In this document: positions 40,950 through 58,552 of the stretch, piece by piece
Layout of the letters: each line of letters begins with the position of its first letter
Position numbering within the stretch: position 1 is the stretch's first letter
Source: an uncultured Chloroflexia bacterium
GTDB taxonomy: Bacteria > Chloroflexota > Anaerolineae > Anaerolineales > UBA4823
Direction: 5' to 3'
Length of the DNA stretch: 64,000 bases
Assembly (NCBI GenBank): GCA_963827155.1
Contig: CAWGZV010000002.1
Coordinates: forward strand, 2,601,062 to 2,665,061
Position numbers and translations under genes: made by a program
Notes under the pieces: generated by a model
What the model saw: the letters and a program-made list of their open reading frames with translations, nothing else
The model's database searches: none
Told to the model about the DNA's origin: nothing

Positions 40950-41363
40950 ATGAATGTCGATCCCGTGCCAAGAACCAAGACAACAATTTTATATGTCGAA
41001 GACAATACCGACAACCGCGTCCTGGTCAAGCGCATTTTAATGGCTGAGGGATTCGCGTTATTAGAAGCAGCGAATGCGCTCGAGGCGGTTGAGATGCTTG
41101 CAGACCGATCTGCGGATTTGATCCTGATGGACATCAACATGCCGGACATCGATGGCTATACGCTCACGACAATCTTCAAGTCTATCCCTGGGATAAGCCG
41201 AACCCCGATCATCGCAATGACCGCGAATGTGATGAAAGGCGATCGCGAGCGAAGCTTTGCCTCGGGCTGCGATGGTTATATCCAGAAGCCGATTGATGTT
41301 GATGCGCTCCCTCGTCAGATTGCCCGATTCCTCTACATGAGGGATTGTGAGAACAGGAGTTGA
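40950..41363 (+). CDS. Single-domain response regulator (DivK/CheY-like)
   Basis: YVEDN, LMDINMP, AMTA, YIQKP. Confidence 0.93.
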   Translation: MNVDPVPRTKTTILYVEDNTDNRVLVKRILMAEGFALLEAANALEAVEMLADRSADLILMDINMPDIDGYTLTTIFKSIPGISRTPIIAMTANVMKGDRERSFASGCDGYIQKPIDVDALPRQIARFLYMRDCENRS

Positions 41364-41807
41364 ACTTGGAGCGAGAATTCATAAGCGTACGTAATCCGGA
41401 TCCTATTTCCGATGGGATTACCGTTCTGGTCGTGGAAGACAATGTCGCTAATTTTATCTTAATTGCACGCATGTTGGGTTTGTTGGGAATTCATTGCGAA
41501 TGGAAAACTTCTGGATATGAAGTCGTTGAATATGCCGATAATCTCCCACGGCTCGATTTGATCCTCCTGGACATTCGGCTCCCTTATGAGGACGGATTCA
41601 GCGCATTGAAAAAGATCCGCGGGGCGGAAAGACTTAAACATACCGCTTGTAGTCGCCGTAACAGCGGAAGCGAGCAATGAACATATGAATAGAGCTCGTC
41701 TGGCACAGTTCGATGGATTCATAGGCAAACCATTGAACCCTGACCGCTTTCCCGACCAGATCCGTCGGATCCTGGCAGGTGATCCAGTTTGGGAAATTGA
41801 TCAGTAG
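41360..41807 (+). CDS. Second single-domain response regulator; frameshift ~41642
   Basis: VVEDN, LLDIRLP. The shifted frame supplies PLVVAVTA...FDGFIGKP...WEIDQ and a stop at 41805-41807. Confidence 0.85.
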
Positions 41808-41955
41808 TGTGTTTGTCAGGTTGCAATTCTGCAAGGAAACCTTCCATTAAAACGATTGGGAGGGATAATCTTTATCCGATATCCTTTTCTTTGAATGTCG
41901 AATCTGGCCTCCATTGTGATAAGAGGATGCTTTCATACACCAGGTTTATGGGAGA

Positions 41956-43697
41956 GTGCTGATGTCCTCACCTGAAAGCCCACCCACCCGGGTAACTCAT
42001 AATCACCTGACCCGCAGGATGACAATCACCATCCTTCCGGTTGGGCTGATCCCTGTCATTGTTATGGGATTGTTAATCTCCACTATCACGAATATGGCGG
42101 GGACCGTTGGAAATGCCGAGTTTTCCAGGCTCACAATTGGTTCAGTTGTCGCTTTGACTCTGATCGCATGGCTGGTATCTTGGCTGATCGCGAAAAGATT
42201 AGCAGGTCCCTTAGTCAGCTTGAGCCAGGCGATGGAAAGTTTTACTTTGGGGAACTGGGATCAACGTGCTTCAGTCTCTCAGAGAGATGACACTGCCAGG
42301 CTGGCAGAACTTTTCAACCAAATCGCGGATGAATATCGCTCAACTTACCAATCTCTGACGCTACGCGAAGGAGTGGGGCACGTTGGACCCGATCAGGGAA
42401 TCAGTCAGATCGCCTGGATAGCTGTTCAAGCAGAAAGCCAAACCGAGATGCTGGAGGGAGCGCTCGAGACGCTGGTTAGAGGCTTCGGCTTAACTTACGC
42501 GGCGATCTATCTAATCGAGCAAGATCATTTGCGCGAAAAACGCTCCGCCAATATGCTGCATTCTTACCAATTGCCAGGATTTGATGCTACAGGTACGGAG
42601 CAAATTAAGCGTCCAGATACAGTCGACCTTGAAACTGTCCCCACCCTCGAATGGCAGGTCAGTAAGGCGATCGCGACTCGTCAGGCACAAGTTGCAGAAA
42701 GCCATCAAGAGGTTGGATTATTCGAGGCGGCTGTGCCTTTATTGCGTGCCGGGCAAGTTATCGGAGCTTTGGAGCTTTTGGCTTTCAGCCGCAGCGGCGA
42801 TGCGCGACTCGGTCCTTTCGGGTGCGCGGTCTGGTGGAGATACAGAAGGCAGCAGGCATTATTGCACTTGGTCTGATCGATTCCCAACCCCTTGATTCAG
42901 ATTCCACGAAGGGGGAAAAATCTGAGGGAAAATCTGGATTGCTAAAGGAATCAATCTCGCTAAAAGAAACTGCTCAGGCACAAACAGATCGTCAACTTAG
43001 CCAGCTGCGAACATTCTGGAACATCAGTCAGGCTATTTCGCTTGAAACGGACCTCAATCCACTTTTTGAGATGATCCATCACCAGTTGGAGAATGCAATG
43101 GGAAATCTCAACTCATTTACCATCGCACTATATGATCTTGGAGAAAATGACCAGCTCGATGGGACTATCCGGATCCCATACTCTGTTGAAGATGGCCGAA
43201 AACTCAGGTATGAACCTTTTCCATTAGGAGAAGGATTGACATCCATTGTTATTCGAACTCGAAAATCACTCCTCATATCCAAAAATGTCGAAGAACAACT
43301 GCGGCAGCTGGATGTCAAGATGGCTGATATGCCCTCAAAGTCATGGTTGGGGGCACCGATGATTTACGCCGGAGATATGATTGGAGTAATCGTCGTACAA
43401 GATGTCACCAGGGATGATCGGTTCAACGAGGAAGACGAACGGATGCTGACAGCTCTTGCTGCCCAGGCTGCGGTGGTTGTTCGCAACGCCAGCCTCCTTG
43501 AGGCTGCTCGCCGGCAAGCAAGGCAAGAAAAATTAACCAATGAAATTACCGCTCGGGTTCGGCGTGCATCCGATATCCAGACGATCCTTATGACGACCGC
43601 GCGTGAGCTCGGAGCGGCACTAGGAGTTCGGAGTGCACATATCCATTTGAATCCCGAATTTTCAGAGCCACCGACGGGAATGGGGGCAGAGCCGTGA
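41956..43697 (+). CDS. Membrane HAMP-GAF-GAF sensor with no output domain; frameshift ~42820
   Basis: Two TMs, HAMP (PLVSL...DDTARLAELFNQ), GAF (WLGAPMIYAGDMIGVI), half-GAF tail. Confidence 0.8.
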
Positions 43698-45413
43698 AAC
43701 TATCGATCTTCAATTTGCGCGGGTCAGAGAATGGGTGGGGCGCCTCTAATAGTCCCTCAACTCGTTTCGGTCTGGACTCAACGGGCGATAAGAAGCTTGG
43801 TCTCGATATTAATAACCGAAATCCTGGCGTTGAACTTCGCACGCAGATGCTTAACAATCTGCTGATTGCTGCAGTTTTCACTTCAGGAATTCTATACCTG
43901 TTGGGATTACCAGCGATGCTTCAGGACCACCAATGGGGGCGGATTTTTGTATACGGACTGATTGCGATTACGATTATTGCTTTAAATCGGGCGGAAAAGC
44001 TCGTTTTCGCCTGGAGATCGGCAATTTTTCTTGGGATAATCTTTGCTGGCGGCGCATTCATGCTAGCAACCGAGGGTCTTTCCGGTAATGGTCGACTGCT
44101 GCTGCTGGCTCTACCTATTCTTGCTACATTCCTTCTGGTCGATTTTCGCTTCACCCACCTGCTCCGGTTCAGCGCCTGGGCATTAAGTCTGATTACGTTG
44201 GTTACGATTGGAATATTTACAATCCAGGGATATCTATCGATCGGAGAACCCGGGGAAAATAACCCAAATTGGGTGAGTGCAACCGTCGGTTTTCTGATGT
44301 TTGCATTCGTCGGTATGTTCACATTCGAACGCTATATCAAGATGCAGGAGGCAAATCACGACCGGCAGGTAGATCTCGCACGAGAGAGCGAGCTTTTGAT
44401 GAGCCGCTTGACAAAGCAGACAGGGATTTTAACCCACAGATTGATCCAAATCCGCACTGCCGCAGAGATCAACGCGGTAGCCAGCAGTCTGCAGGACCCA
44501 AAAACACTGTTTTACCAGGTGTGTGAGCTCGTTAGGGAACGATTCGGATTGTATTATGTTGGGATTTTTCTGATTGAACCGAATACAAATATGGCAGTGC
44601 TTACTTCTGGGACCGGTGAAGCCGGTAAGATCATGTTGGCAGAACATCATCAATTAGTTGTAGGGGGTGATTCGATGATCGGATGGGCGACAGCCAATCG
44701 TAAGGCGCGAATTGCACTAGATGTTGGACAAGAAGCGGTTCGTTTTAACAATCCGCATCTACCAGAGACTTCGATCTGAGCTGGCTCTCCCGATCGTCAG
44801 TCAGCAGGGGGCACTGGGAGCGATTACTATCCAATCGCAAATAGAATCCGCGTTCGATCAAGATGACATCATCGTGTTTCAAAGCGTAGCCGACAGCCTC
44901 GCCAGTGCGATCGAGAACTCCAGGCTTTTCGAACAGGTTCAGAATAATCTTGAGGAAATATCCACACTTCATCGCCAATATCTGCGTGAGGCCTGGTCCC
45001 AAGTAATTGAAGATCAAGGTCCACAGGAGTATCTTTATGAAGCCGGAACAGGACAAACCAGATCCCCAGGTCAGAATGTGAGCATTCATCTACCAATCCG
45101 CCTTCGAGAACAGGTGATTGGGGACATTCGATTGGATACCGACCCTGAACGAAAACCTGGAATGGAAGAGCTTGCTCTAGCTGAAAGCGTGCTGAGTCAA
45201 ACCGCTTTAGCGCTCGAGAACGCTCGCCTCTTAGAAGAAACTCGGCAACGCGCCAACCAGGAAATCCTGGCAGCTGCGATTACTACCAGAATCTGGTCCT
45301 CAAGTAATATCGAGACAATCATGCGCACTGCCCTTGAAGAGATTGGCAGCTCTCTTGATGTCGAAAGTGCATCGATCGAGATTTGGCCGCAGCATATGGG
45401 AGATAATCAATGA
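43694..45413 (+). CDS. Multi-TM GAF sensor with no output domain; frameshift ~44771
   Basis: About 5 TMs; GAF (SMIGWA, LPET|RSELALP after removing one T); half-GAF tail. Confidence 0.82.
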
Positions 45414-48346
45414 CCCCAACCGCTGAACTTACTCTCCAATATATCGGCTGGTTTCTCGCCCTCTTTGAACTGATTTTTGCGGTCTATCTTATTTTTATTA
45501 ATCCACGGAATCTCACTAATATCTTGGCAGGTGCTTTTATTTTCCTGTTAGCGGTGATCACTGTCGGCGTTGGTTCGTTAGCAGGAGCCGCCTATCGCAT
45601 GTCAGCCGAAACATATACCGGGCTATTAGCTGCCCTGATTCCAGCCCTTTTCCCATTGGAGTTGGCTGCCCTGATTTCTATCTTCCGACCTGCTGTTTTT
45701 CAATCTAAACGCTGGCGTTGGTTGGTGTGGGCTGTTGGAGTAATCGCACTTATTCCAGTGGTGTTAACGATCACGGATATTCGAACTGCCTGGTCACTTT
45801 GGTACAGTGGGATCCCGGCAGATTATTCCAGTGGGTATCTCCCTCTCCGCGCTTATACTCAGGGATTTCTTTCTCCGCTTGTCTATTTCATTAATTTCTT
45901 GTTGAGCGGTCTCGGGGTATTAATTTTCTTGATCAAAGCTGGTTTCTGGGAACAGCATGCTCCGAAAGCATATAAAAGGGCAGCCTGGATCCTGCTGATT
46001 GCTAACCTCGCGGTAGGGGCTGCTGCTGCTATTCAATCCAGTGGTATGGCAAGCGTGATCCTGGCGATCACTGCAACATTGGTTTACCTTCTTGGGATCG
46101 GGGCTGCCATTACAGGGGAACTCATCTCAGTTAACAATCCTGGTCGAAGCCTCCAGGTGCGGCTAACAGGTCTGACTTTGATTGTGGCGATCCCAATGAT
46201 CATTGGGATTTCGATGTTCCTGACTGAGCAGGCCCGCCGCAGTATGATTAGTAACGCTAACCAAAACCTGGGAACTGCAAACTATTCGGTGTACGGGTCA
46301 ATCAGTCAGTGGCTGGAATACAACAGCAAAGCCCTCCAGAACCTGGTTAGCAGCCCAGATGCAATCACTATGAACTCGCTGTGGCAAAAACCTCTCTTGG
46401 AAGAGATGGCTGTGAACTACCCATATATGTACCTGATCAGCACAGTGGATGTCAACGGGGTGAATAAAGCTCGCAGTGACAGTCAACCACTGGAAACATA
46501 CAAAGACCGCTATTGGTTCCAGAATGCAATGCGCGGCGCTCCGGTGACTTACGAAGCGTTGTTAGGCAAGACAAATGGAACGCCTTCACTGATCGTTTCG
46601 ATGCCTATTTATCGTGAGGATAAGCGTGTGGTAGGTGTTGGTATGTTTGCCAGCGAGCTAAGCGATGTCTCCAAAGTAGTACAGAATATTCAATTAGGAG
46701 TGGGAGGCAGCGCATTCGTCGTGGACCAGCGTAATGTAATGGTCTCTCACTCTGACCCAAAGGCTGCTCTGCTAGCAAACATGGGGGGCAATCCAGCGGT
46801 AAAAGCGATAAGAGAGGGGAAGCAGGGCGCTTTTGCATATTCAGACACTAAGGGAGAACGGATTGAAGCGTACATAGACCTGCTTCCCAATGGTTGGGGT
46901 GTTGTGACCCAACAAACTGAGGCCGGTATGTTCATGCCAATTCGCCAGATTCAAAAACTGGCGTACATCGTCCTCGTGATTGGCGCGGCATTAATGTCAC
47001 TGCTTGCCTGGACAACAATCCGGCAAGCACTTCGTCCAATTGAGGAATTGACTGAGATTGCCAGGTCCATCAGTCAAGGCAATCTGTCCCGACGAGTCGC
47101 AGTAACCACAGACAATCTGGACGATAAAGATGAACTGGGAACACTTGCTGATTCATTCAATCTTATGACGGACCAGCTTCAAGAACTGATCGGTGGATTG
47201 GAAAGCCGCGTCGACGAGCGAACAACAGAATTGAAACGGCGCATGTTGCAGCTCCAAGTGGCTTCAGAAGTAGCGAGAGAAACGGCTGCAATCAAGGATC
47301 ATGACAGATTATACGAACGCGTAGTCCACTTGATCTCCGAACGCCTCGGGTATGACCATGTCGGCATTTTTTCGATCGAGTCCCACCATTTTCCTGGTTC
47401 ACGGGCAGCTGATCCGACCCAGGGATTTGCAGTGCTGCGCTCAGCCTCATCAGAAGGCGGTGAGCGAATGTTGAGAAAAGGTCATAGGCTGCAGATTGGG
47501 CGGGAAGGCATTGTCGGTTTTGTCGCTTCAACAGGCAGACCCCGGATCGTGTTAGATGTTGGCAGCGATGCCGTATATTTTAATAATCCCGAGCTGCCGC
47601 TCACTCGGTCCGAGATGGCTCTGCCCCTTAAAATCCAAAATAAAGTGATCGGAATCCTCGATGTCCAGTCGAACCAGCCATCTGCTTTCACAAATGAAGA
47701 TTTAGAGATCTTGCAAATCCTGGCTGATCAGGTGGCGCTGGCAATCGAAAATGCGCGCCTGCTTTCAGAGAGCCGGGAGACAGTGCTTGAGCTTGAAACA
47801 CAATATGGAATGCAAATAAGCAAGGGTTGGGCTAAGCATTTAGGGAAAAAACCGATCGTTTACACTTACGATCGGGCTGGTAAGATTAAAATTAACCCGC
47901 CGAATGATGAGAGCGGTCCACAGGAAAATGGAGATAACATTCACGCTGAAATTAACGCTCCAATAGAGCTTCGAGGTCAACGAATTGGAGCCTTCAAACT
48001 TCGAAAAGAACAAACCTCAAAGGGTTGGTCTGAAGCCGACCAAAACCTGGTGCGTAAAACTGCAGCCCAGCTGGCATTATCCTTAGAAAATGCTCGCCTG
48101 ATGGAGGAGATTCGCAGCAAAGCAAACCAGGAAGAAATGATTAACAGCGTGGTTGCCAAAACCCAAAGTTCACTGAACCTCGAAAGTGTCATGAAAAAAG
48201 CAGTGCTTGAGATCGGACGCTCGATGCATCTTTCCAGGGTGCAAATTCGGCTGGGTACAGAACCATGCGAGTCCGGCGGAGGCTCTCCGGAGAACGGAAA
48301 TGGAAAAGGGGCAGGAAAGCACCAGACGCAGGAGTCGGAAGAATGA
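45410..48346 (+). CDS. Multi-TM Cache-HAMP-GAF sensor with no output domain
   Basis: About 7 N-terminal TMs; Cache-like region (YKDRYWF, AFVVDQRNVMVSH); HAMP (DELGTLADSFN); GAF (TRSEMALPL); half-GAF tail. Confidence 0.88.
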   Translation: MTPTAELTLQYIGWFLALFELIFAVYLIFINPRNLTNILAGAFIFLLAVITVGVGSLAGAAYRMSAETYTGLLAALIPALFPLELAALISIFRPAVFQSKRWRWLVWAVGVIALIPVVLTITDIRTAWSLWYSGIPADYSSGYLPLRAYTQGFLSPLVYFINFLLSGLGVLIFLIKAGFWEQHAPKAYKRAAWILLIANLAVGAAAAIQSSGMASVILAITATLVYLLGIGAAITGELISVNNPGRSLQVRLTGLTLIVAIPMIIGISMFLTEQARRSMISNANQNLGTANYSVYGSISQWLEYNSKALQNLVSSPDAITMNSLWQKPLLEEMAVNYPYMYLISTVDVNGVNKARSDSQPLETYKDRYWFQNAMRGAPVTYEALLGKTNGTPSLIVSMPIYREDKRVVGVGMFASELSDVSKVVQNIQLGVGGSAFVVDQRNVMVSHSDPKAALLANMGGNPAVKAIREGKQGAFAYSDTKGERIEAYIDLLPNGWGVVTQQTEAGMFMPIRQIQKLAYIVLVIGAALMSLLAWTTIRQALRPIEELTEIARSISQGNLSRRVAVTTDNLDDKDELGTLADSFNLMTDQLQELIGGLESRVDERTTELKRRMLQLQVASEVARETAAIKDHDRLYERVVHLISERLGYDHVGIFSIESHHFPGSRAADPTQGFAVLRSASSEGGERMLRKGHRLQIGREGIVGFVASTGRPRIVLDVGSDAVYFNNPELPLTRSEMALPLKIQNKVIGILDVQSNQPSAFTNEDLEILQILADQVALAIENARLLSESRETVLELETQYGMQISKGWAKHLGKKPIVYTYDRAGKIKINPPNDESGPQENGDNIHAEINAPIELRGQRIGAFKLRKEQTSKGWSEADQNLVRKTAAQLALSLENARLMEEIRSKANQEEMINSVVAKTQSSLNLESVMKKAVLEIGRSMHLSRVQIRLGTEPCESGGGSPENGNGKGAGKHQTQESEE

Positions 48347-50256
48347 GCGCAGCCGTTGATCATCAGATCAAATCGAACACACCTGAACAAAGCCGGAGAG
48401 GATTCTCGGTTGTCCAGAAGGCAGGATTAGCATTGATTATCATGATCTTCCTGGTAACTGCAGCCAGTGGGATCAGTCTCTGGTTTGCCGCCAGTGTACA
48501 ACAGTCCGTTAAATCAATGCGCACGGCAACTGAGCAGTCTATCCGAGTATCTGACCTCCAACTTCGCTGGTTGGCAATCGCTGGGATTTTGGATACACTA
48601 TCTGTTACCCGATCGACACCGGTGGTGAAAGAAGCTCTTAATGATCAGCTTGCAGAGCTGGAGAGACAGCTTGCTGCAATCGCTTCTGAGCCGCTTGGAT
48701 TGAGCTCGGAGATGATTGCCAAAAATCAAGCGCTGACAAACCAACTACGCAAGACTGGGCTTGAAATGACCACCCTGGTAGGCGAGCTGTACGAACTGAT
48801 TGAACAAGGACGATGGGGCACTGCGCTGCAGCGGCGTCAATCTGGCATGGCCGTGATGCAGGCTCAACTGGGCGAAACCTTATCTCAACTCAACGCTAAT
48901 ATTCAAAACGAAGTTACTGCTCAGGTAAGTGAGATCGCACGGATGCAGTCTCTTGCACGCTCTTTCGCTCTGGCAGCAGTAGCGATGGCATTATTATTTT
49001 CGGTGGCAGCTGTGTGGTTCACACGGCGTACGATCTTGCGCCCAGTCCAGAGATTAACAGCGGATGTCCGGAGAATTTCTGGGGCGCGCTCGGCCACCGA
49101 GCTTGGAGAAATAGAGCCGCTACCCCAACAAGATGAGCTTGGCGAGCTTTCACAGGCAATGTCGCGAATGGCAGGATGGCTTCGCGAATCCTATTTGAAA
49201 CTTGAAGAACAGGTTGAAGAGCGTACTGCGCAGCTCCATAAACGCTCGGTGCAGCTTGAAGTAGCCGCCCAAGTCGCTAAAGATATTGCGGCAACTCACG
49301 AGCTGGAAGTCCTTTTGTACCAGGCAGTCAACACCATTCGGGATCGATTCGATTTCTATCACGCCGGTATTTTCTTAATCGATCAGCAAGCTGAATTTGC
49401 AGTATTACGTGCTGCTACTGGAGAGGCAGGACGAGAGATGCTAGCGCGAGGACATCGATTGAAAGTTGGAGGGACGGGATTGGTTGGCCATGCCGCCCAG
49501 TCAGGTGAAAGTAGGATCAGCGCGGATGTCCGGTTTGAGCTGGAACATTATAAGAATCCACTGCTCCCCGAAACTCGATCGGAGGCTGCATTCCCACTTA
49601 TCGTAAGTGGGCAGGTCATTGGGGTCCTCGATGTTCAGAGCGATCGGGTGGAGGCTTTTGAGCAAGAGAGCGTAGAGACGATGCAAATTATGGCAGATCA
49701 ACTGGCGATCGCAATCCAGAACGCCAAGCTGATCCAGCAAAGTCAGGAAAACATCAGAGAGCTTGAGGCGGCATACAGCCGGATCAATAAGCAAGATTGG
49801 GTGCAATTTATTCGGCGAAGTGATGTCGTTGGGTATTCTTTCGATGGTCTGGAAATCCGTCCTATCATGCGAGAAAATCTCTCTTTCGATGGCTGCGAAC
49901 CAGACACAAGCGCAAATGAAACGGTAGAATCAACTGCAGATTTCAAGGTAGGAGCTGTTCATATTCCTCTACAGATCCGGGGTGAATTGATTGGCAATCT
50001 CGAATTATGGACTCAAGACGAAGAATTTACTGAAGATGATTTCATTGTGCTCGACACAATCAGCAGCCGGTTGAGTCAGATCCTGGACAGCGCCCGACTT
50101 TATGAGGATACTCAACGGAGAGCCGATAGAGAGCGCCTTGCTTCAGCCATCACAGCTAAGTTGCGAGCCTCTAACGATCCACATGCCATTCTTAGTACTG
50201 CAGTAAAGGAGCTTCGAAAAGCACTGCAAACAGAAAAGGAGCAGGTTTCTTTGTGA
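48343..50256 (+). CDS. Four-helix-bundle-HAMP-GAF sensor with no output domain
   Basis: TM, helical extracytoplasmic region, TM, HAMP (DELGELSQAM), GAF (TRSEAAFPL), half-GAF tail; ATGA overlap with the previous gene. Confidence 0.87.
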   Translation: MSAAVDHQIKSNTPEQSRRGFSVVQKAGLALIIMIFLVTAASGISLWFAASVQQSVKSMRTATEQSIRVSDLQLRWLAIAGILDTLSVTRSTPVVKEALNDQLAELERQLAAIASEPLGLSSEMIAKNQALTNQLRKTGLEMTTLVGELYELIEQGRWGTALQRRQSGMAVMQAQLGETLSQLNANIQNEVTAQVSEIARMQSLARSFALAAVAMALLFSVAAVWFTRRTILRPVQRLTADVRRISGARSATELGEIEPLPQQDELGELSQAMSRMAGWLRESYLKLEEQVEERTAQLHKRSVQLEVAAQVAKDIAATHELEVLLYQAVNTIRDRFDFYHAGIFLIDQQAEFAVLRAATGEAGREMLARGHRLKVGGTGLVGHAAQSGESRISADVRFELEHYKNPLLPETRSEAAFPLIVSGQVIGVLDVQSDRVEAFEQESVETMQIMADQLAIAIQNAKLIQQSQENIRELEAAYSRINKQDWVQFIRRSDVVGYSFDGLEIRPIMRENLSFDGCEPDTSANETVESTADFKVGAVHIPLQIRGELIGNLELWTQDEEFTEDDFIVLDTISSRLSQILDSARLYEDTQRRADRERLASAITAKLRASNDPHAILSTAVKELRKALQTEKEQVSL

Positions 50257-50315
50257 TCTGCTCCGGTTAAGGCAGATATTGGTCAACGCTGCAAATCGGC
50301 AAGATTGAACTGGAA

Positions 50316-51332
50316 GTGCATGAAACCCGAGATTATGGAGTTGAGTGTATGAACAACAACGAATTTACCCCGAAGGATCAAAGTGTCTTCGAACCAGGAC
50401 CGGAGACTTCAATCGAGCCGCATGCGGATGATAATTCGCAATCAAAAGATCTGGACATTCATCACAGCAGTGAAACTGGGTTGGAAACCAAATCCAAGAA
50501 CCCTTTGGTTATAGCGCTTGCGAACCAAAAAGGAGGTGTGGCTAAAACAACCAGCGCAGTCTCGTTGGGAGGCGCATTGGCGAGCAGATCGTTTGATGTA
50601 TTGTTAATAGATTTGGACGCCCAGGCTAATTTAACGCTTGCACTGGGGAAAGATCCAGCTCGAGTGCGCAGCTCGATAACGGATGTGCTCTTCCATTCGG
50701 CAACGCTGTTGAGCGTCAGCAGGGAAACCAATATCCCTGGGTTGGATCTTGTGCCATCAAATTCTGGAATGGAGCTCGCTGAACGTTTCTTGCCAGTTCG
50801 AAAAGATTATGAAACTATCATGAAGCGAATTTTCGATAAGGAGCTGCGTACTATTGGCAAGTCGGGATCTCGCCTTGAAATGCGAGAAAGTCCATCTTTC
50901 GAACATATTCTTCCAGTAATTCAATATGATTACATTATTCTGGATTGCCCACCATTTATGGGGGCGGTCACATTGAATGCTTTGATTGCATCCGACCTGC
51001 TGATCATCCCTACCCAACCAGAATTCTTCTCGGCTCACGCACTGCGTACGATGATGACCTCGATCCGCCAGGTGAGGGCTCAACTCAATACAAATCTTGT
51101 TTACCGAATCCTGGTCACGATGTTAGATAAACGTAACCGAATCCATCGCCAGATCCGCGATCAGATTATTAAGACCTTTGGCGAAGGTGTCTTTTCCACG
51201 ATTATTGAGGTAGATACCAAGCTGCGCGAGAGCGCGATTGAGGGAAAGCCAATCCATTATCACAAGGCACATACTCGGAGTGCGATCCAATATGATGCCT
51301 TAGCGCAGGAGATTATCGATTATGGTCGCTAG
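50316..51332 (+). CDS. ParA/Soj-family ATPase (orphan, no parB)
   Basis: ANQKGGVAKTT, IDLDAQANL, DLVPS, ILDCPP, IIPTQPE. Confidence 0.92.
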   Translation: MHETRDYGVECMNNNEFTPKDQSVFEPGPETSIEPHADDNSQSKDLDIHHSSETGLETKSKNPLVIALANQKGGVAKTTSAVSLGGALASRSFDVLLIDLDAQANLTLALGKDPARVRSSITDVLFHSATLLSVSRETNIPGLDLVPSNSGMELAERFLPVRKDYETIMKRIFDKELRTIGKSGSRLEMRESPSFEHILPVIQYDYIILDCPPFMGAVTLNALIASDLLIIPTQPEFFSAHALRTMMTSIRQVRAQLNTNLVYRILVTMLDKRNRIHRQIRDQIIKTFGEGVFSTIIEVDTKLRESAIEGKPIHYHKAHTRSAIQYDALAQEIIDYGR

Positions 51333-54300
51333 ATATCCACCACAAAAAGAACTGATCAAGCGCCGTGATCGACAGGATCGAGAAGAAATTCCGGAATGTC
51401 CTGCTTGGGATAAAGAAAGCCTGGAGTTCACACCAGGTGAGGAAGGGCGATCAGGATCACAAGCAAAGAAGCGGATCGAAGATCTTTTTTCCGGGTTGTT
51501 GAAGGAATCACACGGGAAAGATCGACCAGATGCATCTGAAGAGACTACCGTTGCAAATGAAACGAAAACTGGCTTTGAGATTAATGAATGGCGAATAAAT
51601 CCGGGGCTGAACGCCGATTTTCGATCTGAACCGGTTGACCTGGACTGGTACGGCCCTAGAAGGCATCCACTTAGCCTACCAGAAAATTTCGGATCCACTG
51701 AGTTCGAAGCGGATGAGTTCGGGGGATTAGCTACTCATCGATCCATTGAGATAAGCTCACCGGCAGAATCGCCACAACCCTTCCCAGAACTGGCTCCGCA
51801 AACCGGCGAGTGGATCGCGGCGCCGACAACTCTGGCACTCACCAAGGCGGAGACCCTTTCTCCTAATATGCTGCTGGAGCTTGTGGATCAAAAACCGCAG
51901 CGCCGCTGGAACGAGGACGAGCTGCTGTTGGTTGAACAGGTTGCAGACCAGCTGACGCTTGCTTTAGAGAATGCACAGCTCTTCGAACAAACCCAGCAAG
52001 CGAGAGACGCCTTGCAAATCAGCGTCCGGTATCAGAAAAGTGTGGCTGAAGCGGTCTCGATCCTGAGCGAACGCGGTTATTCGGCCATCTCGGAAGTGCT
52101 TCAAGTCTTAGGCGAGGCTGCTCAAGTGAGCAGGGCTACCGTTTTCGAGATTGAGGTTGATCTGCACGGCCCATATTTTAGGAGTTCATCGGAATGGCAT
52201 GCGCCAGAGGTTGATTCGCGTTTGGTCGACCCTGAAATGCATCGGATTGCAGGGGATTGGCTGAAACCCTGGATCGACCAGATAGATCGCGATGGACATC
52301 TCACCGCAGATATTCACAGCGCTCCTCTTAAAGGCGGGGCATTGGTGAAAACCCTCGGCGCAAAAACCATTCTGCAGTTCATCGTTCGCGGGCAGCATGG
52401 TGCTCCGAGATGCCTCAGTTTCGAACAAACAGATTTCGTCCGAACGTGGAGCAGCGATGAAATTGCGGCACTCGATACAGCCGCTTCAGCGCTTGCGAAC
52501 ACAATTCTGCGGGAAAACCTCTTCAACCAACTCCAGGTCAACCTTTCTGAGACGGAAGCCCAGTATCAGGCAAGCGCCCAAATCAATTCAGCGAACAGTC
52601 CAGATGAAATCCTCTCAATTTTGAGGCAGTTCACTATTCTCGGCCACAACCATGTTTCAAATGTTTCCATCTGCCTGTTCGATATACCCTGGACGAAAAC
52701 GGAAAAACCAGCCTGGTTGGCTCCGGCAGCAGTATGGTCCTGTCCGTCACAACCCGAGTTTCTTTCAGAAAGAACCGCAAACCTTGATTGGTTGAATGAA
52801 GAATTGCTGTTTAATTCCGAAGGCACTACATCGGTGTTTGACATCGAGAGCGATCCCAATTTCAACAGGCAATCGAAATCCCAATTGATCGAGACGTTCA
52901 AAACGAAGAGCTTGCTAAGCGTGCCGCTGAACGTTTCAGGACGCTGGATTGGCTCAATCATTGCGCTTTTCAACCAGACAACCGGATTTTTAGAGAGGGA
53001 AATTCGGCGGTTAGAATCACTTTCCGGGCAGGCTGCAGTCGCACTTGAAAGCCAGCGCCTGCTCTCTGAGACTCGGCAAAGAAACGAAGAGCTGCTAGTC
53101 ATGAACCAGGTATCCAGCGCAGTCAGCCGCACACTGGAGCTGGACCAGGTGCTTAACGAGATCTTGGAGCGAGCACTTGAAATGACGGGTTTCGATGGGG
53201 GGTTGATCTCATATGTTCATCCCGAATCTCAAAAATTGATTCTGGCAGTTGCCTGCAACCTACCCTCTGCAATGTCTGAGAGATTGGATCAAACCGGCCT
53301 TGGGGGTACGCCATGCGATCTGGTATATCAGTCGGGAATAACCATTAACATTTCAGACCTGACTGGTATCTCTGAGGTATTTATTAAGTTTCCAGATGAA
53401 GTGAAAGCCGAATGGCCTGAAGAGCGGGTATCGAAAGCCTTCGCCGGATTGAAAGCTATGGGATATCAGGCTTACCTGGGCGTCCCGCTGATGGTTAAAA
53501 GGCACACCCCTTGGCACTGTCTGTTTATTCAGTCGGTCGACGAGAGAGCTTCCACCTGTTCGGATTGAGCTAGCCGAAGCAATTGGAAAGCAAGTGGGAG
53601 TTGCAGTTGATAACGCCCGGCTTTTCAGGAACACCCAAAACGCGCTTGGGGAGACCGAAGGTCTTTATCAGGCAAGCTCAGAGCTGAACTCGGTCCAAAC
53701 TTATGAGGATATCCTGGATTCGCTTCGCCGATACACCATCCTGGGAAAATCGGATCGGTTGATCAGTATTTTGCTTTTTAACCACCCCTGGTTCATTAAG
53801 GAGGAGAAACGCCAGACGGGCAGACTGCCAGCCGATTCAGAACTCAATAAACCGGAATGGCTGGAGGCTTATGCATGCTGGTCACAAGCTCCAGCTGAAT
53901 TCACTTTCACCCGAATCGAGGTCGAAAAATTCCCAGGGTGGTCGCTCGCGCTCCAGCAAGGCATGAGAATTCTTGAAGATGTCGGGGCTGACTCAAGCAT
54001 GGAGGACGAACAGCGCCGTTATATCGTGGAAAAACTCCAAGCTCAGGCTGTGATTTGGTCGCCGCTTTACGTTGGAAATTTATGGATTGGTCTGATCTTT
54101 GCAGCCTTCGGTGAAACCATTACAGGTTGATGATTTTCAAAAAAGGCGGCTTAATTCACTCAGCGGTCAGGCTGCAATCGCAATCCAAAACCTGCGCCTG
54201 CTGGAGGAAAGCCGCCGCCGGGCGAACCAACTGCAAACCGCTGCCGAAATTGCCCGAGACACGTCCAGCACGCTTGCCCTCGACAGCCTGCTCCAACGGA

Positions 54301-56075
54301 TTGTTCGATTGATTGTCGAGCGATTTGGCTATTATCACGCTTCGATCTTCCTGATTGAGGAGGATGGCAACGAAGCAGTAGTGCGTGAGGCGACTGGGAC
54401 TGCTGGGGAAGAGATGAAGCGAACAGGTCACCGCCTGGAGGTGGGTGGGCGATCGGTAATTGGTACGGTAACCGCATCTGGAAAATCATTCTTGTTAAAT
54501 GATGTGAGCTCTGAAGAAGCCTTATCCATCCACCACCCGAATCCGCTTCTGCCTAACACAAGAGCCGAGCTCGGACTGCCGCTGAAGATTGGCGAGCGGG
54601 TGATCGGGGCATTCGACGTCCAATCGGACCTGGTGAATTCATTTTCTGAAGACGAGGTAAACGTGCTGCAAATTCTTGCAGACCAGGTCGCGGTAGCTGT
54701 AGACAATGCCCGATCCTACGAACTTGCCCAACAAGCGGTGAAGGAAATCAGCGAAGCGGATCGCTTAAAGACCCAGTTCCTAGCTAATATGAGCCATGAG
54801 CTGCGCACGCCGCTGAACTCTATTATCGGTTTTTCCAGGGTAATCCTGAAAGGCATCGATGGGGCGATAAATGAGCAGCAGACCCAGGATCTGACGGCGA
54901 TTTACAACTCGGGACAGCACCTGCTCGGATTGATCAACGACGTCCTGGACGTATCCAGGATCGAAGCCGGGAAGATGGACCTGAACTTCGAAGATAATGT
55001 GAACCTGAGCGAGATCATCCGAGGGGTGATGTCTACAACCATTGGGCTCGTGAAAGACAAGCCAATCGCGCTGCACCAGAACATCGACAGCAATTTACCA
55101 CTGGTGACAGCCGATGCGATGAAGATCCGCCAGGTGCTGATCAACCTGCTATCTAACGCTTCAAAATTCACCGAACAAGGCAGCATCACGGTCGAAGCCT
55201 CTCCATACAGCGGAACGGATGGCGATCCGCAGGTAATCGTGCGGGTTATCGACAGCGGACCCGGCATCCTACCGATCGATCAGGCTAAACTATTTCAACC
55301 CTTCTCGCAGGTGGACGGCTCGCTTACCAGGAAGACGGGCGGATCTGGGCTTGGGCTTTCGATCTGCAGCCACCTTGTACGGATGCATCACGGTCAAATC
55401 GGAGTGGAAAGCGAGATTGGAAAAGGAAGCACTTTCTTCTTCACCCTTCCAATCAGGCAGCCTGAGCCGAAAGAGGAAAGCGACCCTGAAGCAACACAGC
55501 TGGTTGAGACCAATCCATCATTGAATAAGGCTACCCTGGCTTTAGATACCGAACTCCACAGCGAGCAAGCCGGTGAAGCTGGACCCAGACCAGAACTGAC
55601 CAATTTCCGCGGAACAGGCACAATTTCTGGCGGCCCGCTGCCGAACACAAAGTCCCGGCTGATCCTGTCTATCGACCCAGACCCGAAGGTCATAGACCAA
55701 TACCGCCGCTACCTGGCTGGCAGCACGTGCACGGTAATCGCTCTAACGCGCATCGACCAGGCAATCACGGTTGCGCGTGGGGTGCAGCCTTATGCGATCA
55801 CGCTCGATGTCACGATGACGGGCGCTCAAGGCAAAAACCGGACCGGACCGCTCAGCCCGGCTTTGGGTTTGCTTTCGGGTAAAGGCAGCCTGGATGGTTA
55901 TAAAGTGCTCAAAGAATTGAAGGCCGATCCGTCCACAAGCCACATCCCCGTGATCGTCTGCTCAACCGCGGCGCAGGAGGAGAAAGCCCGCGAAGCAGGC
56001 GCTGACGATTATCTACTCAAACCGATTCTGGAGGACGACCTTGTGCAGGCTGTTCAACGCCTCGAGAGGAAATGA
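51322..56075 (+). CDS. Cytoplasmic multi-GAF hybrid histidine kinase (~1580 aa repaired); frameshifts ~53498 and ~54107
   Basis: Three ORFs join by single-base removals. Serial GAF domains; H-box FLANMSHELRTPL; NLLSNASKF; DSGPGI; GGSGLGL; C-terminal receiver (TLDV...LLKP). Confidence 0.88.
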
Positions 56076-56187
56076 AAAGCAGCGCCCTGGCGGTCAAATC
56101 GAAGACCGGCTGCAAGGAAGACCTGCTGCAAGATGGCAAATTTCGCGGCGATCGATCTCTTTAACGAAGTCTGGTTAGCCGATCCAT

Positions 56188-57225
56188 ATGAGGAGCGCTG
56201 AACTGTCGACCGTCCATATTCCCAAGAAAGGAGTGCTAGCCGCACTGAGCTCCGCACTGTGCCTGGGACTGGCGCCAGTATTTGGGCGGATGGCGATCTT
56301 GTATGGGATTCCATCGCTGGCAGTTGTTGCCATCCGTACAACCCTGGCTGCGCTACTGCTACTGATTGCAGTTTTGATCTTCGGACGAAAGTACCTGTAC
56401 ATCTACCCTGCCGGGCTGCTCGGCTGCCTACTTGCAGGGTGGATCAATGGATTCGGATCGCTCTTTTATTATTTCGCGTTGAGCAGGATCAATGCCAGCC
56501 TCGGACAGCTGCTCTTTTCGCTGTACCCTCTTTTCCTGGTCTTATGGCTTTCACTGGACAGACAGGCTCCCAGCAAGCTGACAATCTTGCGGTTGGGGCT
56601 TGCGCTGCCGGCGATTATCCTGATCGTTGGGACAGAACAGAGCAAACCGGATCTCCTCGGAGCTGGCGCGATGCTGATCGCGGCTATCCTTTATGCTCTG
56701 CACCTGCCGATCAATCAGAGAGTGCTCTATGATATGCCGCCCCAGACCGTGACGCTCTACACGCTGATGGCGATGAGCGCAGTCGTCCTGCCGCCATTTC
56801 TCTTCTCGAACGGCGGGGGCTGGATTGGAGCTCCTTTCCAAGGCGGCAGCGCTGCACATTTAGGAGTTAGCCCAGCTCAGATGGTGGCGCCGCTGATCGG
56901 GTTAACGCTGGTGACCTTTTTTTCACGCCTGATGCTGTTCACGGGCGTCAAACACTTAGGAGGAATGCAAACCGCGTTACTGGGTTTAGGCGAGCTGCTG
57001 GTTACGCTGGTCTTTGCACAAATTTTCCTGGATGAAACCCTGACAACGACGCAATGGGCTGGCGCTGGCTTGCTGATGGCAAGCTTGATGATGGTGGGGT
57101 TGGAAGGAGGCGAAACTCGCAGAGGCACGAACAGAGGATTCTTACGCTGGCTCAGCCCAATCACCTATCATGAATCCGTTCTGCCAGCACAGCTCTCTGA
57201 AAATGGAAGCACAACGGATTTGTGA
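56188..57225 (+). CDS. DMT/EamA-family transporter
   Basis: About 10 TMs in two EamA-like halves; LFSLYP, LGELLVT. Confidence 0.88.
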   Translation: MRSAELSTVHIPKKGVLAALSSALCLGLAPVFGRMAILYGIPSLAVVAIRTTLAALLLLIAVLIFGRKYLYIYPAGLLGCLLAGWINGFGSLFYYFALSRINASLGQLLFSLYPLFLVLWLSLDRQAPSKLTILRLGLALPAIILIVGTEQSKPDLLGAGAMLIAAILYALHLPINQRVLYDMPPQTVTLYTLMAMSAVVLPPFLFSNGGGWIGAPFQGGSAAHLGVSPAQMVAPLIGLTLVTFFSRLMLFTGVKHLGGMQTALLGLGELLVTLVFAQIFLDETLTTTQWAGAGLLMASLMMVGLEGGETRRGTNRGFLRWLSPITYHESVLPAQLSENGSTTDL

Positions 57226-57262: not shown

Positions 57263-58552
57263 TCAATAGAAGCTCCCCCCGGTTTCATTGTATGAAACCG
57301 GAGGACCATCTGGATGCTCGAGAACCTGGTGGTAAAGATCGATGATGCGCAAAGCAATATTCTCCCAGGCGTATTGGCGGGCAAGCTGCAGGGCTTGCTC
57401 ACCCAGCTTTTGGCGCAGCTCGCTATCCTGCAAAATCCAGGATAAGCGCGTGGCAAGCGCTTCAGGATCGTCAACCGGGACGGTGTAGCCAGTCACCCCA
57501 TCTTGCACTAAGAAGGCGAGGCCGCCAACTTGCGATGCGACTACCGGCGTCCCGCAAGCCATCGCCTCGAGGGCAACCATCCCGAAGGATTCATAATGCG
57601 ACGGGACCACGACTGCTTCGGAAGCTGAATAATAATAGGGCAGGGTGTCCTGGCTGCGCTTTCCCAGGAAGGCGATTAGATCGTTCAATCCGGCTTGCTG
57701 GCTGATTGCCTTGAGGCGCTCCATCTCTTCATTTTGATTTTCCTGCTCCGCCTCCAGATCGCCGCCGATCACCGCCAGGCAGACATAGATATTCTGGCTG
57801 TTCAGGATCTTGATCGCCTGGATCAGAATGTCGATTCCTTTGAGGGGCTCAATCCGCCCGACGTAGAGGAGCATACGGCCGCCGCGGGGATCACAAGGAG
57901 GGGCTTCAATCACCTCACAGGCTTCATCATTGGGAATTGGGTAGAAATGGCTGATATCAACGCCAGGGGGGATGATGACGACTTTAGAGGTGTCGGTCTG
58001 GTAAAGCCACTGGAGCTGGGCAAGCTCGGCAGGGGTGGCAGCGACGATGCGGTCAGCAAGGCGCAGGACTTCCTTCTCACCATTGAGGCGGTAATCGCCT
58101 TCAATCTCGCTGGGAGACCTGGCAACGCGCTGCTTCATCACGCCCAGGGTGTGGAACATATGGACGATCGGCACGCCCCAGAGCTGCTTGAGGGTTTTTG
58201 CGGCGATGCCCGACATCCAATAATGGCTGTGGATCAGGTCATAATGCAGATCTTTGGCTGCGGCGAAATCGCGGACACCCTGGGCGAAATCGGGGATGTA
58301 GGAGGCAAGGGTCTCTTTGCCGAGGGGGGTTTCTGGACCGGCAGGAATGTGAACGACGCGGTTTCCGTAGCCCAGGTCGTGGAGGACATGGGGGACATGT
58401 TCGTCCTGCGAGCGGGTGAAGACGTCTACATGCACACCCTGAGCACCCAGGCGGCGGGTGAGCTCGCGAACGTAGACGTTCATGCCGCCGGTATCTTTGC
58501 CCCCGAGGATGGCAAGCGGGCAGGTATGGTATGAGAGCATGGCGATGCGCAA
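57263..58552 (-). CDS. GT4 glycosyltransferase, MshA-like
   Basis: HTCPL...DTGGMNVYV, HSHYWMSG, HMFHTLG, VGRIEPLKG, PSHYESFGMVALEA. Substrate not confirmed. Confidence 0.8.
   Translation of the reverse strand: MRIAMLSYHTCPLAILGGKDTGGMNVYVRELTRRLGAQGVHVDVFTRSQDEHVPHVLHDLGYGNRVVHIPAGPETPLGKETLASYIPDFAQGVRDFAAAKDLHYDLIHSHYWMSGIAAKTLKQLWGVPIVHMFHTLGVMKQRVARSPSEIEGDYRLNGEKEVLRLADRIVAATPAELAQLQWLYQTDTSKVVIIPPGVDISHFYPIPNDEACEVIEAPPCDPRGGRMLLYVGRIEPLKGIDILIQAIKILNSQNIYVCLAVIGGDLEAEQENQNEEMERLKAISQQAGLNDLIAFLGKRSQDTLPYYYSASEAVVVPSHYESFGMVALEAMACGTPVVASQVGGLAFLVQDGVTGYTVPVDDPEALATRLSWILQDSELRQKLGEQALQLARQYAWENIALRIIDLYHQVLEHPDGPPVSYNETGGSFY

Follow-up and report, generated by a model that had tools for sequence, protein, structure and literature searches.

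In bacteria, the merging of many sensory inputs into one decision is understood mainly for the chemotaxis arrays and a few multikinase networks. Chemosensory arrays can be positioned by orphan ParA ATPases, namely, PpfA together with TlpT in Rhodobacter and ParC together with ParP in Vibrio, and networks in which accessory sensors or additional kinases act on a histidine kinase are exemplified by UhpC-UhpB and RetS/LadS-GacS. Here we examine a block of eight genes from an uncultured Chloroflexia bacterium of the order Anaerolineales, located within a stretch of 64,000 nucleotides (contig CAWGZV010000002.1, positions 2,601,062 to 2,665,061; hereinafter, the window). The Anaerolineae, which abound in sludge, sediments and anammox reactors, have hardly been studied by genetic means. 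The block is a two-component system that includes unusual kinase-less sensor paralogs and an orphan ParA, and it is not a chemosensory system by any of the defining features that we tested. With a probability of roughly 0.55, we consider it to be a conserved signaling operon of the Anaerolineae in which the sensors would feed in trans into a single kinase that would itself be held by ParA via a short peptide. Full-text searches of the literature found no description of such a block or architecture.

According to the listing of open reading frames (ORFs), the eight genes, in the order REC1-REC2-R1-R2-R3-R4-ParA-kinase, all lie on the forward strand of the window and mostly overlap, in agreement with the gene order, strand and start/stop overlaps given in the preliminary description of this locus. 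As assembled, REC2, R1, R2 and the kinase gene are each broken across two or three frames, with five breaks altogether; for the reasons given below, these breaks are assembly errors, and the lengths quoted here are those of the repaired genes.

The four membrane sensors, R1 to R4, differ in their input modules, as established by Pfam searches before and after repair, in conjunction with a hydropathy scan for transmembrane segments. R1 (41956-43697; 580 residues once the base missing after 42819 is restored) contains two transmembrane segments with a loop of 3 to 15 residues between them, followed by a HAMP domain, a weak, degenerate GAF domain, a second GAF and a C-terminal tail that is characterized below. 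In R2 (43694-45413; 572 residues upon removal of the spurious base 44770), a MASE11 module with multiple transmembrane segments precedes a GAF, a minimal GAF and the tail, and R3 (45410-48346; 978 residues) consists of about eight transmembrane segments, a dCache_1 domain, another transmembrane segment, HAMP, GAF, minimal GAF and the tail. R4 (48343-50256; 637 residues, the length of the public gene call) was delineated with Pfam and AlphaFold and comprises a periplasmic four-helix bundle flanked by transmembrane segments, then HAMP, GAF, minimal GAF and a tail of the 'NDP' subtype. The GAF or GAF_2 domains of R1-R4 are detected with E values of 1e-15 to 1e-22, in agreement with the secondary structure predicted by AlphaFold, and the first GAF of the sensors is complete and strongly conserved, with an invariant NPLLPETRSE loop.

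The sensors contain no recognizable output module. In the repaired R1-R4, HisKA, HATPase, GGDEF, EAL, PP2C and MCP domains are all absent at the Pfam cut-off of E <= 0.1, and the DHp/HisKA and catalytic ATP-binding domains are missing from the AlphaFold models as well. The full-length model of R4, built with 63 homologs (mean predicted local distance difference test score, pLDDT, of 84.5), starts with the four-helix bundle and HAMP, from which a long helix leads into the GAF (residues 321-440); residues 441-492 form another long helix, residues 495-555 fold into a minimal GAF of four strands that includes a disordered loop, and the remainder of the chain comprises one more long helix (564-608) and a short one (613-628) that runs out into coil over several residues. 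When the C-terminal 198 residues were modeled on their own (pLDDT 80), the result agreed with the full-length model, no globular part is left unassigned in either, and a Foldseek search of the PDB with this C-terminal portion yielded only weak matches to GAF/PHY and CodY-GAF structures, the best with E = 0.06. No hidden output domain, the presence of which had been named beforehand as a possible refutation, emerged from the post-repair Pfam search, the two AlphaFold models and the Foldseek comparison; accordingly, the original characterization of these four proteins as output-less membrane sensors with different inputs and GAF/HAMP cytoplasmic parts stands.

All four sensors terminate in one common element of 52 residues, after which come 6 to 60 low-complexity residues. 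The approximate consensus of this tail is L[LY]EEtQrRAeRErl..EIt.k.R.S.D...ILqTAv.EL..aLg...a.v.l., and the tails of R1 (43494-43649), R2 (45228-45383), R3 (48098-48253) and R4 (50098-50253; …RASNDPHAILSTAVKELRKAL…) score 73.7, 67.6, 64.6 and 81.9 bits, respectively, against the tail profile. When ORFs from all six frames of the window genome were scanned with the profile, scores of at least 42 bits were obtained for R1-R4 only. At the sequence level, the tail corresponds to the end of the last helix of a GAF, a linker, and the first helix and strand of a next GAF that is absent; the true GAF starts in multi-GAF kinases match the tail profile weakly, at 20-30 bits. We also considered a circularly permuted domain, which could arise by folding of the tail back upon the minimal GAF; in the monomer models, a helix gives way to coil, without any strand pairing. 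In 14 related loci, nearly all sensors upstream of the kinase carry the tail (33-80 bits), with one sensor-like ORF lacking a tail call in each of the loci L017 and L037, and the R4 tail of a genome from the same genus (G001) is identical over 64 residues to that of a public protein labelled 'Anaerolineae bacterium UTCFX2', so that the window belongs in the vicinity of this metagenome-assembled genome.

The sensor adjacent to ParA usually possesses a 'DP' subtype of the tail (SNDPQ, TNDPQ or SDPQ), and this subtype is present in no last sensor of the ParA-less loci. The 'SNDP' motif as a universal mark of the ParA-proximal sensor had to be weakened to a mark of most of them, and the 'DP' subtype is a tendency only, because the more distant ParA loci deviate. 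R4 itself appears to be a recombinant at residues 581-637 (50083-50253), with the body of a bundle sensor and the tail of a ParA-proximal one. Up to residue 580, the R4 body shows 40-80% identity, in most 40-residue windows, to the four-helix-bundle ortholog of its congeners; over the last 55 residues, the identity is 65% to the congeners' ParA-proximal sensor, including its tail, as opposed to 45-48% to their R4 tails. The congeners have 6-8 sensors versus 4 in the window, and the mosaic structure of R4 combined with the smaller number of sensors would fit a deletion by recombination that retained the ParA-proximal tail.

The single kinase of the block (51322-56075; 1583 residues upon removal of the spurious bases 53497 and 54123) is devoid of transmembrane segments and consists of several GAF domains (three stretches for each Pfam GAF model), HisKA (E = 3.3e-19), HATPase_c (4.1e-27) and a C-terminal receiver with an insertion (1.7e-11). 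REC1 (40950-41363; 137 residues; Pfam Response_reg, 1.2e-24) and REC2 (41360-41807; 148 residues once the spurious base 41643 is removed) are stand-alone receivers, each with the acidic pair, the phosphorylatable aspartate, the threonine and the lysine in place, and the SHELRTP H-box is present in the repaired kinase, so that the catalytic and phospho-acceptor motifs are kept. Orthologs of REC1 stand at the head of the cluster in the loci L016, L021, L022, L034, L037 and L120, and REC2 is 68-83% identical to its counterparts in relatives. With a hybrid histidine kinase and receivers that carry a phospho-acceptor aspartate, the block is a two-component system, and the proposed complement of one kinase without transmembrane segments and two receivers holds up in both the Pfam and the hydropathy analysis. 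In the receiver of the kinase itself (55650-56072), DPDP replaces the acidic pair and an insertion of approximately 22 residues follows the phospho-acceptor aspartate; this receiver may be regulatory or degenerate. The N-terminal part of the kinase (51826-51999) harbors what looks like half of a GAF module, a β-hairpin plus a helix with the pattern …WATLQVVDE..R.W.E.EQLLVKQVTDQLSLALENARLFQE, which comes downstream of a region that is variable or PAS-type, can be aligned with the two final strands and the final helix of GAF, and is kept in the ParA-linked kinases.

Between R4 and the kinase lies the ParA gene (50316-51332), the product of which belongs to the AAA_31/CbiA group in Pfam (AAA_31, E = 2.1e-42) and matches solved Soj structures at about 1e-32. 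A deviant Walker A motif, KGGVAKTT, is invariant in all orthologs of the cluster ParA, and no membrane-targeting helix was found in this protein by inspection of the sequence and hydropathy. Unlike the ParA of a ParABS system, the cluster ParA has no adjoining ParB; the sole ParB_N match in the genome (C2:1594418-1594696) is located about 1 Mb away, beside a canonical Soj with the motif KGGVGKTT, so the cluster ParA is indeed an orphan, as originally suggested. This canonical pair of Soj and ParB (C2:1594418-1596500), outside the window, offers an internal comparison for the orphan ParA and for the peptide described next.

At its N-terminus, the kinase carries a short basic peptide, AKKRIEDLFSGLL (51463-51501), a version of which occurs in every gene that follows this type of ParA. 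The pattern K-R-[LI]-x-x-L-F, basic and ending in LF, opens the gene after ParA in all loci examined, taking forms such as MPKKPKIDKRLDKLF and MSKKLNTRIESLF in the kinases of relatives; nine of these cases were recognized by eye, outside a strict regular expression. The peptide seems to resemble the N-terminus of ParB, [KR]-x-L-[DE]-x-L-[FI]: the chromosomal ParB of the same genome starts with MTRKTGLGRGLDALI and includes RGLDALI. The N-terminus of ParB is the region that activates Soj-type ParAs. All four ParA-less kinases examined lack both the peptide and the N-terminal half-module. In two divergent paralogous clusters, in which ParA is 40-42% identical, the kinases again begin with such peptides, MSKSDDLKNRLDELF and MSKDLYSKRLEDLF; these second, divergent copies of the system (L118, in G002:C3, and L119, in G033:C16) have tails scoring 27-50 bits. 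In another genome (G027), the gene following ParA encodes a sensor that starts with MSNNDNSYQKRLESLFSGI, and no such peptide is present in the kinase of this cluster, which is membrane-bound; at this locus (L120:4551-8013), ParA is located between sensors, and the KRLESLF peptide of the sensor is followed by a long region of Gln/Ala/Glu-rich repeats. The peptide travels with ParA rather than with the kinase. In the cargo-positioning systems of the PpfA, ParC and McdA type, the client or adaptor binds ParA by means of an N-terminal peptide that also stimulates the ParA ATPase; in the family examined here, a ParB-like peptide starts the gene after ParA and is missing where ParA is missing.

The block is widely conserved in the Anaerolineae. 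Among 41 relatives of the window genome, 21 encode an ortholog of the cluster ParA; 18 have both ParA and tails, three ParA only, one tails only and 19 neither, a co-occurrence with a Fisher p value of 1.3e-7, uncorrected for phylogeny. At least one tail sensor, ParA and a multi-GAF kinase (about 1000-2240 residues where complete) are found in the same order in 13 of the 14 loci examined around this ParA, the exception being L024 (in G022; see below), and REC1 and REC2 precede the sensors wherever the DNA extends that far. A scan of a collection of species-representative genomes for this type of ParA gave 29 loci that have sufficient upstream DNA and in which ParA is 45% identical or more, all of them in metagenome-assembled genomes of Chloroflexota, mostly labelled Anaerolineales and including Candidatus Villigracilis. 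Tail sensors, numbering from 1 to 6, are present in 27 of the 29, with the last one ending at ParA in 24 of the 27 loci and at a distance of 230-250 nucleotides in two others and of 1.6 kb in one; where downstream DNA is available, a kinase of about 680-1840 residues follows ParA in most of these loci. By contrast, none of 41 control ParAs with the KGGVAKTT motif (<=38% identity, mostly from other phyla) adjoins a tail sensor; in most of the controls, the next ORF is of ParB size, and in two from Chloroflexota (L079 and L085), it is histidine-kinase-like. The linkage of the genes seen in the window is, therefore, strongly conserved.

In a phylum-wide sample of 301 genomes, the tail was detected in 35, with 3-13 tails in 25 of them, and the multi-tail clusters mostly occupy about 25 kb or less of a single contig, on the same strand. 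The number of sensors per kinase in the relatives varies from 1 to 13. In the ParA-less genomes G042, G054 (another class), G070 and G288 (other orders), the tail sensors are directly followed by a kinase, and because other orders and another class keep this arrangement without ParA, ParA must be viewed as an add-on rather than as part of the core. The ParA-less kinases are membrane-bound, start with PAS or contain a whole sensor-like N-terminus, and one of them, with 2611 residues, possesses transmembrane, sensor and HAMP-GAF parts similar to those of R4. This fusion is a hint, of the Rosetta-stone type, that sensor parts of this kind may signal to this type of kinase. Among the ParA-bearing loci, that of the window encodes a kinase without transmembrane segments, and no such segments are apparent in the kinase N-termini inspected in relatives.

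Under the scenario that we favor, the sensors would act in trans as interchangeable input subunits of one kinase, by way of contacts that involve GAF domains, spine helices or tails. The 'NDP' tail of the ParA-proximal sensor, that is, the first helix and strand of a GAF, could pair with the orphan last third of a GAF at the N-terminus of the kinase, and ParA-ATP would bind the peptide and, in doing so, place or partition the soluble kinase; in the ParA-less relatives, membrane anchoring or fusion to a sensor would take over the placement of the kinase. The kinase would then phosphorylate REC1 and REC2 and, in relatives, perhaps also the receiver fused to a threonine-synthase-like enzyme, whose gene neighbors that of the EamA exporter. 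Both the signaling of the sensors through the kinase and their assembly into an array are inferences. Several observations weigh against this scenario. The cluster does not encode an Hpt domain that would relay phosphate from the hybrid kinase. Tails are also found in lineages in which the kinases have no N-terminal half-module, so docking of the tail to the kinase cannot be the general role of the tail. Tandem paralogs cluster by duplication alone, and the co-occurrence statistics ignore phylogeny. Finally, in one relative (G022), ParA and the kinase are paired, yet tail sensors are missing throughout the genome, so the kinase can work without them; at this locus (L024; G022:C44:12500-31500), ParA and a kinase of 830 residues equipped with the peptide have the same glycosyltransferase neighbor as in the window.

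The last of these observations, along with the tails that occur where kinases lack the half-module, would be readily accommodated if the sensors were independent effectors, which respond through a GAF ligand or another target of the tail and are located beside the kinase owing to tandem duplication and co-regulation; the completeness and high conservation of the first GAF, with its invariant loop, would fit as well. We regard this alternative as possible but unlikely, given that the tail proteins of the window genome are confined to the cluster, that the sensors adjoin the kinase across orders and in another class, and that related kinases bear the same sensor parts in cis. A bolder version of signaling in trans, which we put forward as tentative and, on balance, doubtful, is a kind of receptor-to-kinase coupling not recognized before, in a lineage that lacks chemotaxis genes: a minimal GAF would be split between the partners and completed in trans, with its initial helix and strand coming from the tails of up to 13 sensors and its two final strands and final helix from the N-terminus of a soluble hub kinase, and ParA would hold and partition this hub through the ParB-mimicking peptide.

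The role of the system could also be mainly spatial, so that the sensors, especially the NDP-tailed one, would regulate how ParA positions the kinase or cargo along a filament, and phosphorylation would be secondary. The 'DP' tail in most ParA-proximal sensors and in no last sensor of ParA-less loci, the peptide that follows ParA even onto a sensor in G027, and the retention of the NDP tail by R4 after the apparent deletion all seem compatible with such a role; nevertheless, several lineages keep sensors, kinase and receivers without ParA, which therefore cannot be the core of the system, and the cluster ParA has no membrane-targeting helix, so that we deem this scenario still less probable than the preceding ones.

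More improbable again is a large ordered membrane array akin to that of the chemoreceptors, in which the kinase would be docked at the tails and ParA would partition the whole cluster. Up to 13 sensors per kinase with a common C-terminal element, an orphan ParA accompanied by a cargo-like peptide, and a genome without MCP or CheW might be taken as signs of such an array, but neither a CheW-like scaffold nor a long hairpin tip was found, methylation enzymes were not found in the cluster, ParA is optional, and nothing in the analysis bears on higher-order packing. Of the analogy to a chemosensory array that was drawn in the preliminary description, the lack of output domains in the sensors and the conservation of the gene set have survived; none of the defining chemosensory features was detected, ParA is not a core component, and the array analogy as such is best treated as a working hypothesis.

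The five frame breaks could give the impression of a decaying locus, with pseudogenes in place of the frameshifted genes and with sensors left over from truncated kinases, but this view is refuted: every break is contradicted by independent short-read contigs, and the architecture is conserved, with intact genes, in most loci examined. For this comparison, we used Logan short-read contigs from two independent metagenome runs, which have one base less at 41643, 44770, 53497 and 54123 and one additional G after 42819; several of these contigs differ from the window at the break positions only. The five single-base edits produce uninterrupted ORFs for REC2, R1, R2 and the kinase (148, 580, 572 and 1583 residues), and most orthologs in other genomes are intact, with lengths matching those of the repaired genes. 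Given the indels in the contigs from both runs and the single ORFs obtained upon repair, the breaks are assembly errors rather than pseudogenes. Split ParA and sensor ORFs in two other genomes, G001 and G004, may stem from similar errors. Five single-base indel errors within 13 kb of a long-read-style assembly (three contigs, 4.9 Mb) imply that other genes of this genome are probably split likewise, and that its apparent pseudogenes need support from reads.

The conserved block also takes in a gene that was not part of the initial observation, that of an EamA/DMT transporter (56188-57225, forward strand), which is syntenic with the kinase in many relatives; with this gene included, the co-oriented run spans 40950-57225, and the gene ends overlap or nearly abut. 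A scan for promoters and terminators gave counts at the level of shuffled sequences, save for one hairpin after EamA. This GC-rich hairpin of 14 bp, at 57275-57305, lies between the convergent genes for EamA and a glycosyltransferase and is likely to be a two-way terminator that closes the operon. Downstream of the kinase, many relatives encode a threonine-synthase-like pyridoxal phosphate-dependent enzyme fused to a C-terminal receiver and, after it, the EamA/DMT transporter (the fusion genes are L014:268-1998, L019:1424-3133, L033:9002-10669, L032:4543-6246 and L035:16795-18543). The fusion proteins score below the NCBIfam cut-offs for true ThrC; conceivably, their activity may be controlled by phosphorylation, and an amino-acid-type product may then be exported. 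The fusion was not found in the window genome, where EamA comes directly after the kinase, and accordingly, it was rejected as the local output.

A comparison with the best characterized analogs shows both shared and unique features of this block. Like the ParA-positioned chemosensory arrays, it combines many enzyme-less receptors with one kinase and CheY-like receivers, and its orphan ParA is encoded within the cluster together with an apparent client that has a short basic N-terminal peptide. Unlike those arrays, it includes no MCP domain, CheW or CheA-type kinase; its kinase is a HisKA-type hybrid, the cytoplasmic part of the sensors is a GAF spine, and ParA is absent from part of the family. 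In searches that included positive controls, the MCP signaling domain (PF00015) had no match in R1-R4 or anywhere else in the genome, and the same holds genome-wide for the CheW/CheA P5 domain (PF01584); CheR and CheB were sought with Pfam in the cluster only, and no cluster gene encodes either. The earlier statement that CheA, CheW, CheR and CheB are all missing is, accordingly, upheld for CheW throughout the genome and for the kinase, which is of the HisKA type, and for CheR and CheB within the cluster.

In the networks of accessory sensors, such as UhpC-UhpB and RetS/LadS-GacS, as would be the case here, a membrane protein without productive output modulates a separate histidine kinase by contact; the present block differs in having 2-13 paralogous sensors per kinase that contain neither a DHp nor a catalytic domain and share a dedicated tail. 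The stressosome, with its RsbR paralogs, RsbS and RsbT, similarly includes paralogous sensors with variable N-terminal inputs, a common C-terminal module and one kinase, but the block encodes no STAS domain detectable with Pfam and no RsbT-type serine kinase, and its sensors are membrane proteins. In domain composition, the sensors resemble the phytochrome- and NarX/NarQ-type kinases, in which four-helix bundle or Cache inputs, HAMP and GAF/PHY-like modules are likewise arranged on a continuous helical spine, and the best fold matches of the C-terminal part of R4, although not statistically significant, are to phytochrome GAF/PHY and CodY GAF; however, the spine of the sensors described here terminates with the truncated beginning of a GAF where those kinases have DHp-CA. 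The ParA, for its part, matches the structures of chromosomal Soj, and the client peptide resembles the RGLDALI segment of the genome's own ParB, but unlike the chromosomal Soj/ParB pair, it has KGGVAKTT in place of KGGVGKTT and no adjacent ParB, and its client is a kinase or a sensor.

The block is a member of none of the groups of its closest analogs, namely, ParA-positioned chemoreceptor clusters, accessory-sensor and multikinase networks, and the stressosome. If the proposed scenario is correct, this system would represent a third solution to the problem of merging many inputs into one decision, built from GAF spines. A ParA tied to a histidine kinase by a ParB-like peptide would, in addition, enlarge the known set of ParA cargoes. 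The tail, together with the peptide and the half-module, is defined precisely enough for direct testing.

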